Under the pieces are notes generated by a model, which saw only the letters and a list, made by a program, of their open reading frames with translations, ran no database searches and was not told the DNA's origin. The translations under genes and the position numbers were made by a program. Positions 1,535 through 2,491 of a DNA stretch of 5,748 nucleotides are shown one piece after another. Numbering within the stretch: position 1 is the first letter of the stretch; each line of letters begins with the position of its first letter. Source of the stretch: Candidatus Wukongarchaeum yapensis (GTDB lineage Archaea > Asgardarchaeota > Wukongarchaeia > Wukongarchaeales > Wukongarchaeaceae); assembly GCA_016840425.1 (NCBI GenBank), contig JAEOSI010000152.1:1-5748 (forward strand), in the 5' to 3' direction.

Positions 1535-2491
1535 TTACAATCTTGTAGTTATTTCTGCTCCGTCTTTTGTGATTATTACTGTGTTTTCTGCCTGACTTAC
1601 TAGGACTCCTTTATCTTCTACAAGTACATAGTATTTGTATAGGGCTCCTTTTGAGAGAAGTTCGCGCATGCCTATTTTTACAGTTGATGCGGGAAATTCT
1701 TTTAGAAGCCATCTTTCACAAAATGGGAGGGTTTTGTAGTTCTTATTGATATGTCGGCGGAGGGTTTTTGATGATTTAAAACGTAAGGGTACTCTCATAG
1801 GTAGGAGAGTGTATATTTGGCACTTTGTTTTATCTTCGTGGCTTTTTCCGCTTCCTGTTGTTGCGAATACGTCTAAACCGTAGGCTTCTCCTTCCTCTAC
1901 GGTATGTCCTATGGGGATTTTTATGTTGGGGATATGTTTTGATCCGTGTATTTCGTATCTTTCTAAGGTGTGTCCGGTTAGATCTCTTATGGGTCGGTAT
2001 CCGTATTTTTTAATGGTTTTTTCTATTATTTCGCCGATTTCGTTCGTTTTTGCGTCGGGTTTTAGGGCTTCAACAGTCGCTTTTAAAGCTTCTTCTACAG
2101 CTTCGATTAAGGTCTCATGATCCGGATTCAAACAAACAGAGAAGGCAGCATCGGCTATGAAACCATCTATATGAACCCCGATATCGATTTTAACTAAGTC
2201 TCCTTCCTGAATCGTTGTTTGATCATCGGCAGTAGCGGTATAATGGGCAGCTATATTGTTTATTGAAACGTTGCATGGAAAAGCGTGAAAACCCCCTGCC
2301 TCTATAATCAGCTCCTCGGCTTTTTCACAAATATCTAGTAATTTAGCCCCCGGTACTATAAAGGGCAAAATTTTATCCTTTACTTCAGCCCATATTTTTC
2401 CAGCTTTTCGGTATTTTTCAAATTTCTCTTCAATTGTGAGCTCTTTCTCGTTTTCTTCTTTTGGAGGAATTAACTCTTCTTTTGCAACCAT
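1535..2491 (-). CDS. map: Type II methionine aminopeptidase-fold (M24) protein with an atypical metal site (MetAP2 / Ebp1-like)
   Basis: [14 protein letters not shown] (H83), [14 protein letters not shown] (D103, D114), [11 protein letters not shown] (H174, H182), a type II helical insertion and QAENTV (E302). The usual AIEPF Glu ligand is Asp (GLDVF, D207). The fold call is secure; aminopeptidase activity is not. Confidence 0.88.
   Translation of the reverse strand: [318 protein letters not shown]

Follow-up and report, generated by a model that had tools for sequence, protein, structure and literature searches.

The window considered here, 5,748 nucleotides of contig JAEOSI010000152.1 (positions 1 to 5,748, forward strand) from the Asgard archaeon Candidatus Wukongarchaeum yapensis (assembly GCA_016840425.1), carries a methionine aminopeptidase (MetAP) gene whose product has an aspartate, Asp207, in place of one of the glutamates that bind the active-site metal. 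The gene is the Asgard-archaeal orthologue of eukaryotic MetAP2 and is ordinary save for this one ligand. We propose, at a probability of about 0.6, that the protein would still be a metallo-aminopeptidase, with a retuned M1 metal site, and that it would work beside a canonical paralogue encoded on another contig of the assembly (C129). A first-pass annotation of this DNA, made from the sequence alone, had instead suggested an intermediate between MetAP2 and the eukaryotic pseudopeptidase Ebp1, a suggestion that comparison of residues, model scores, and trees does not support.

An Asgard MetAP2 orthologue with one altered ligand

The MetAP gene occupies positions 1535..2491 on the minus strand, an open reading frame (ORF) of 957 nt, stop included, with a 318-aa product. 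This product (P0001) scores 110.8 bits against the Peptidase_M24 family (PF00557) and 314.6 bits against the type II MetAP model TIGR00501, above the cut-off of 222.65; the EBP1 model TIGR00495 gives 185.3 bits, and its cut-off of 430.05 is not reached. Among solved structures, HMMER places Pyrococcus furiosus MetAP (PfMAP) first at 236 bits, followed by human MetAP2 (hMetAP2) at 183 and Ebp1 at 104. An AlphaFold (AF2) model built from 92 homologues has a predicted local distance difference test score (pLDDT) of 94.5, and its top Foldseek matches are PfMAP and hMetAP2, with template-modelling (TM) scores of 0.88–0.95. Against PfMAP, the model gives TM 0.89/0.95 at 41% identity; identity to hMetAP2 is 34%, and Ebp1 is matched at TM ~0.86 with 26% identity.

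The AF2 model has the pita-bread fold with a helical insert of ~60 residues. From its secondary structure, the type II-specific insert subdomain spans approximately residues 214–283 (1643..1852, minus strand); it is absent from type I matches, which stop near residue 210. At the other end of the protein, residues 1–24 (2420..2491, minus strand) form a charged extension, of which residues 1–14 are predicted to be disordered (pLDDT <50). In alignments, this segment lies opposite the N-terminus of the EBP1 model and, from residue 12, that of Ebp1 chains. Between the window gene and its sister-species orthologue, the ratio of nonsynonymous to synonymous substitution rates (dN/dS) is 0.17.

The states of the active-site residues were read from a HMMER alignment to PfMAP and hMetAP2, and all codons given below lie on the minus strand. 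The canonical ligand set is Asp, Asp, His, Glu, Glu, and the window protein has four of the five: Asp103 (hMetAP2 D251; 2183..2185); Asp114 (D262; 2150..2152), the residue lost in Ebp1; His174 (H331; 1970..1972); and Glu302 (E459, Lys in Ebp1), which is followed by Asn303 where His is usual (1583..1588 for the pair). The fourth ligand is Asp207, encoded by GAC at 1871..1873. It stands at the position of the Glu that serves as M1 ligand and general base, E364 in hMetAP2, E187 in PfMAP, and E204 in the Escherichia coli enzyme (EcMetAP). The surrounding residues 204–209 (1865..1882) read YGLDVF against a clade consensus of YA(V/L)ETF, that is, with A205G, E207D, and T208V. Both catalytic histidines, equivalents of EcMetAP H79 and H178, are intact and are invariant in 122 relatives: His83 (hMetAP2 H231; 2243..2245) and His182 (H339, Asp in Ebp1; 1946..1948), the latter within IHGSK. 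The protein thus reads IHGSK versus the canonical HAG, and QAENT versus the canonical QFEHT. On the ligands, on these two motifs, and on the presence of a charged N-terminal extension, which is about 24 residues long, the first-pass annotation had read the sequence correctly. Since Asp207 keeps a carboxylate, metal binding may persist.

The closest known enzyme in both sequence and structure is PfMAP (PDB 1XGS/1WKM; MEROPS M24A), which has the same fold and insert domain and shares with the window protein the Asp, Asp, His, and last Glu ligands and the two catalytic histidines. At the fourth ligand the two differ, with AIEPF in PfMAP (Glu187, then Pro) and Asp, then Val, in the window protein; PfMAP also lacks the charged N-terminal extension and reads HAG, whereas the window protein has HGxK. 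In these last respects the window protein resembles eukaryotic MetAP2 (human METAP2; fungal MAP2), its orthologous clade in the maximum-likelihood (ML) tree: both have HGxK and a charged extension before the first helix, and in neither is the ligand followed by Pro. Eukaryotic MetAP2, however, has Glu-Thr at 207–208 in 18 of 18 representatives, where the window protein has Asp-Val, and it differs further in its much longer poly-Lys/acidic N-terminus and in a 9-residue insertion before the H174 region.

These likenesses belong to an Asgard-wide clade. Each of the 120 database proteins nearest to the window protein bears an Asgard name (Odin, Jord, Frey, Thor, Promethearchaeota, or 'Hod'), and from these and from genome searches the marks of the clade are an E/K-rich N-terminal extension, LHGxK, and YA(V/L)ETFA(S/T)TG without Pro after the ligand. 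There are 13–97 residues before the fold in this clade versus 6–11 in non-Asgard archaeal MetAPs, which carry HAG and AIEPF. The window protein displays the same markers in its 24-residue extension, IHGSK, and LDVF without Pro after the fourth ligand. The ML tree was built under LG+C20+F+G4 PMSF (posterior mean site frequencies) from 107 sequences, comprising 24 Ebp1, 17 eukaryotic MetAP2, 36 Asgard-clade, 22 classical Asgard paralogue, and 8 other archaeal proteins. The branch joining the Asgard clade to the eukaryotes is supported at 96/86 (ultrafast bootstrap and SH-aLRT, the Shimodaira–Hasegawa-like approximate likelihood-ratio test), and the classical archaeal enzymes and Asgard paralogues stand apart from it. 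MetAP is already in use as an Asgard–eukaryote marker, as M069 of the NM57 set (PMC12395588). Asgard-clade MetAPs were also met on two contigs labelled otherwise, one from 'Candidatus Deferrimicrobium sp.', a bacterium (L091, DATKTP010000022.1), and one from a 'Thermoproteota archaeon' (L094, JAPDJY010000035.1); both nest among Odin and Jord sequences, and mislabelling or mis-binning is the probable cause.

Of the 41 Asgard genomes sampled, 40 have a member of the clade, usually accompanied by a 'classical' paralogue or two. Four small Odin-like genomes, including a closed chromosome, have no MetAP except the clade member, their other M24 gene being of the Xaa-Pro peptidase type. Therefore, the clade is a working MetAP. 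Position 303 varies among MetAPs (H, D, E, N, F, and others), and the sole MetAP of one genome (G005) reads QAENT like the window protein. Because HGxK, the tail, and Asn303 are clade-wide or found in functional MetAPs, they say nothing about loss of function.

Asp207 is another matter. Of 122 close relatives, 117 have Glu at position 207. When 400 Asgard species genomes were scanned with the single degenerate motif Y-[GA]-x-D-[IV]-F..., which Asp variants with other neighbouring residues escape, only four (G000, G001, G002, and G023) showed the Asp form. In the window's class, Asp207 is fixed in all three genomes of the collection (G000–G002), with both GAC and GAT as codons, and it occurs also in the metagenomic proteins P0010 and P0018; conservation among related genomes, on which the first-pass annotation had placed weight, is thus found. 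A205G, E207D, and T208(I/V) occur together in all five Asp-bearing relatives. Given the identity of only ~53% among these five sequences, the use of both GAC and GAT, and the constant pairing with A205G and T208I/V, Asp207 is old and maintained and not an error. All the remaining catalytic residues, D114, H182, and E302 included, are invariant across the five sequences.

The fourth genome of the scan is that of Candidatus Atabeyarchaeum deiterrae (G023, CP147780.1; motif at C1:859945-859973), where YALDIF shows the same ligand changed from Glu to Asp. Glu is retained in two genomes of its family, and the Asp of this species is an independent recurrence. The ML tree calls for a minimum of four Glu/Asp changes.

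Probable catalysis at the altered site

The source assembly (92% complete, 3.3% contamination) holds three type II matches among its M24 genes, plus one of Xaa-Pro type. In addition to the window gene, a MetAP on contig C129 has AIEPF and QAEHT, and it can be taken as genuine because the sister species has a near-identical orthologue. The first-pass annotation had guessed at a canonical MetAP gene elsewhere in the genome, and this is it. The other MetAP, on contig C149 (locus L005:1474-2388, plus strand), shares 62% identity with a Bathyarchaeota MetAP, with which it is joined at 100/100 in the tree; its contig has a guanine-plus-cytosine fraction of 0.41 versus 0.38 genome-wide, and the sister species has no such copy. 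Mis-binning of the contig or horizontal transfer is the probable explanation, and the grouping with Bathyarchaeota weakens any statement that this genome has three MetAPs. Every classical paralogue examined carries the full ligand set, so a canonical MetAP is present in all four Asp-bearing genomes as well.

As the Asgard orthologue of MetAP2, with its pita-bread fold, type II insert, and short N-terminal tail of acidic and basic residues, the protein would remove methionine during translation in a metal-dependent reaction. In the window's class, Asp has taken the place of the M1-binding, proton-shuttling Glu. The metal would be held by D103, D114, H174, D207, and E302, and the N-terminal Met would be cleaved by way of H83 and H182. 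Asp is one methylene shorter than Glu, and A205G and T208V/I, in the same beta-strand, might give the backbone room to compensate. Kinetics, metal preference, or substrate range would probably be altered. A live active site is favoured chiefly because D114, H182, and E302, which drift or flip in Ebp1, have stayed unchanged across ~47% divergence. The dN/dS of 0.17, the stem branch of ordinary length, and the keeping of Asp under both codons likewise speak for selection on the site. In addition, an aminopeptidase P with Ala at the homologous position still binds both Mn ions (PMC3596340).

MetAP2 and the pseudopeptidase Ebp1 are both located at the eukaryotic ribosomal tunnel exit. Ebp1/PA2G4 (and Arx1) has the same fold as the window protein and, like it, Asp at the E364 position followed by I/V. 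Among 144 Ebp1/Arx1-like cluster representatives, 92% have Asp at 207 and 93% have I/V next. The correspondence has been tabulated as MAP2 D251, D262, H331, E364 (general base), and E459 versus EBP1 D109, N120, H188, D227, and K320 (PMC11266112, Table 2). Specific to Ebp1 are the changes of D114 to a non-ligand, of H182 to Asp, and of E302 to Lys, none of which is seen in the window protein. Ebp1 also has two internal insertions and a Lys-rich C-terminal tail of ~50 aa; in the alignment, neither the insertions nor the tail were found in the window protein, whose C-terminus is ITTRL.

Several observations weigh against an active enzyme. The Asp form is rare, as the scan indicates, and the combination of Asp207 with V/I mimics the D-(I/V) pair of Ebp1. 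Mutants of the homologous Glu in E. coli MetAP and in aminopeptidase P are at least 100-fold less active (PMC3596340), this Glu being the proposed general base, and a review of pseudopeptidases scores the Asp of Ebp1 at the E364 site as a lost ligand (PMC11266112). Furthermore, the Asp form was never seen as the sole MetAP, with a full-ligand paralogue in four of four Asp-bearing genomes; given this paralogue, the data do not require that the Asp form be catalytic. The literature covered, to which the study of EcMetAP ligand mutants by Chiu et al. (1999) does not belong, yielded no measurement on a mutant with Asp for Glu at the homologous ligand.

The same observations can be taken further, to an attenuated or dead enzyme that has converged on Ebp1 and would act mainly as a non-catalytic tunnel-exit factor or nascent-chain binder. 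The change hits precisely the Glu that is both general base and M1 ligand, and the window protein has the highest EBP1-model score among the proteins compared (185 versus 102–160 bits). We consider this rather unlikely, though it is the alternative that survives best. D114, H182, and E302, all three lost in Ebp1, are strictly kept, and neither the Lys-rich tail nor the insertions of Ebp1 are present. The stem branch of the Asp lineage on the ML tree is no longer than those of other Asgard groups, with no acceleration of rate. As for the full-ligand paralogue, most Asgard genomes have at least two MetAPs, and its presence beside the Asp form is therefore not diagnostic.

It is tempting to go one step beyond attenuation and to propose that the window's class took, independently, the first step of Ebp1: a spare MetAP arisen by duplication, then the E-to-D change, and at length a weakly catalytic or non-catalytic factor of the nascent chain or the tunnel exit. 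We regard such a course as improbable. If true, the protein would be a living intermediate of the transition from enzyme to pseudoenzyme.

The position of Ebp1

The first-pass annotation had proposed the window protein as a possible precursor of Ebp1, partly on the strength of Ebp1 motifs. The motifs are real: the PDB chains of Ebp1, the Ebp1-family proteins P0131–P0133, and the table of PMC11266112 all agree with them. The PDB chains read FVAQFKFTVLL, and P0131–P0133, at 495–550 bits against the EBP1 model, read Y(G/A)(V/L)DV(L/I) and IDG(D/E/N)K. These three proteins and fungal MetAP2 were recovered with query residues 88-297; a query of 100-310 gave one Asgard protein only. As to their echoes in the window protein, Asp207 does match the family mark of Ebp1, but HGxK, the tail, DLVKID..DGFIA, and N303 are not specific to it, DLVKID..DGFIA being common to the Asgard clade or to archaeal MetAPs generally. 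Conversely, GIGFPT and one insertion site are common to Ebp1, eukaryotic MetAP2, and Hodarchaeum and are absent from the window protein.

In the ML tree, Ebp1 and eukaryotic MetAP2 group together at 100/100 and are sister to a Glu-bearing group of the Hodarchaeum mangrovi type at 98/77, with the window pair in the other half of the Asgard clade. When eukaryotic MetAP2 is left out of the data, Ebp1 joins a Heimdall group and not the Asp lineage. Constraining Ebp1, which is a long branch, to group with the Asp lineage costs 23 log-likelihood units (ΔlnL) and gives p = 0.216 in the approximately unbiased (AU) test. A constraint that also holds eukaryotic MetAP2 to the Hodarchaeum group gives ΔlnL 5.15 and p-AU 0.383, its tree being the best found by an IQ-TREE search that had not converged.

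Because both AU tests are weak, the Ebp1 clade was regrafted onto each of 163 branches under one model, with the shared Asp columns left in. The best position is beside eukaryotic MetAP2 (ΔlnL 0). It is followed by the stem of eukaryotes plus Hod (2.9), the Hod group (3.1), a Heimdall pair (3.1), and, at greater cost, the base of the clade (4.9), Thor (6.0), and a classical paralogue pair (6.3). The window pair comes 12th of the 163 (6.6) and the other Asp trio 17th (9.3). Eleven branches, Thor, Heimdall, and a classical paralogue pair among them, thus fit Ebp1 better than the window pair does. Since the scan shows Ebp1 to be poorly resolved, the 100/100 for Ebp1 plus eukaryotic MetAP2 is not to be taken at face value, and the presence of several placements within ~3 lnL despite such support is a caution for single-gene claims on the origin of Ebp1. 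In the phylogeny, of the kind that the first-pass annotation had called for, the window protein stands in the Asgard clade, apart from the classical archaeal MetAP2s, and Ebp1 falls best, if weakly, beside eukaryotic MetAP2.

The data do not fix the origin of Ebp1; nothing in them points to the window lineage, even with the Asp columns kept, and an origin there is disfavoured. That this lineage is the direct archaeal precursor or the sister of Ebp1/PA2G4, with Asp207 inherited, has in its favour the shared Asp with a beta-branched residue at the next position, and the AU tests do not reject the grouping. We nonetheless judge it very improbable. The best ML tree places Ebp1 with eukaryotic MetAP2 beside a Glu-bearing group, the removal of eukaryotic MetAP2 sends Ebp1 to Heimdall, and GIGFPT and the insertion position tie Ebp1 to eukaryotic MetAP2 and Hodarchaeum. 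Asp also arose separately in Atabeyarchaeum deiterrae and so recurs, in keeping with the number of Glu/Asp changes on the tree. Together with the three catalytic residues kept, the EBP1-model score of 185 against 430 bits, and the rank in the regraft scan, these findings speak against the idea of an intermediate between MetAP2 and Ebp1. The parsimonious reading of Glu-to-Asp in the window lineage is a recurrent, parallel substitution rather than ancestry.

Lastly, the view of Asp207 as an error of sequencing or assembly, or as an inconsequential private variant, for which it could be said that GAC is one base away from GAA and GAG, is refuted by its presence in every genome of the class and in P0010 and P0018, by the two codons, and by the A205G and T208I/V that always accompany it; of the circumstances that the first-pass annotation had listed together as refuting its idea, neither a private variant nor a genome with no other MetAP was found.

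The neighbourhood of the gene and the meaning of Asp207

A TFB (TFIIB-type) gene at 518-1468 on the plus strand is convergent with the MetAP gene. Of 80 Asgard loci with a MetAP of this type, 33 have TFB directly next to it (in Thor, Hermod, Odin, and further groups), mostly in the same direction as the MetAP gene. The TFB–MetAP arrangement is a conserved housekeeping neighbourhood. On the other side of the gene, TTATATA at 2515..2521 (minus strand), ~24-30 nt upstream of the ATG, is a possible archaeal TATA box, read from the sequence as a candidate promoter element.

The other ORFs of the window have no family match. Two of them, at 2639-3919 and 3980-4297 on the plus strand, have products without a match in Pfam or NCBIfam: the first is E/K-rich, helical, and 426 aa long, and the second has 105 aa and two CxxC pairs. 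Both recur side by side next to MetAP in a Heimdallarchaeota metagenome-assembled genome (L115) as well as in the sister species. The product of the ORF at 4368-4697 (minus strand), of 109 aa, is Lys-rich at its N-terminus and weakly MarR/winged-helix-like at its C-terminus; relatives of it lie upstream of MetAP in Hodarchaeum-type loci (L126, L138, L147, and L152) and in G002. Finally, an ORF at 5341-5748 (minus strand), which runs off the window, contains at 5351-5479 a 60-nt tandem repeat of 2.2 copies with 91% matches, encoding a Glu-rich C-terminal tail (EEEALEEEIEEMMEEEE, repeated).

The window protein is thus a known kind of protein with a rare, conserved, Ebp1-like substitution, and there is no evidence in it for an archaeal origin of Ebp1. 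Its interest is as a natural and conserved single-step variant, in which only the general-base/M1 Glu has been altered, to the very residue of Ebp1, while a canonical MetAP has been kept. As such, it bears on whether Asp at the M1 site retunes or disables a MetAP, and on whether a protein that sets out toward an Ebp1-like state does so by a neutral, an adaptive, or an inactivating change. Should the enzyme prove simply active, as we are inclined to think, it would amount to a modest note on the plasticity of metal ligands in M24 enzymes.

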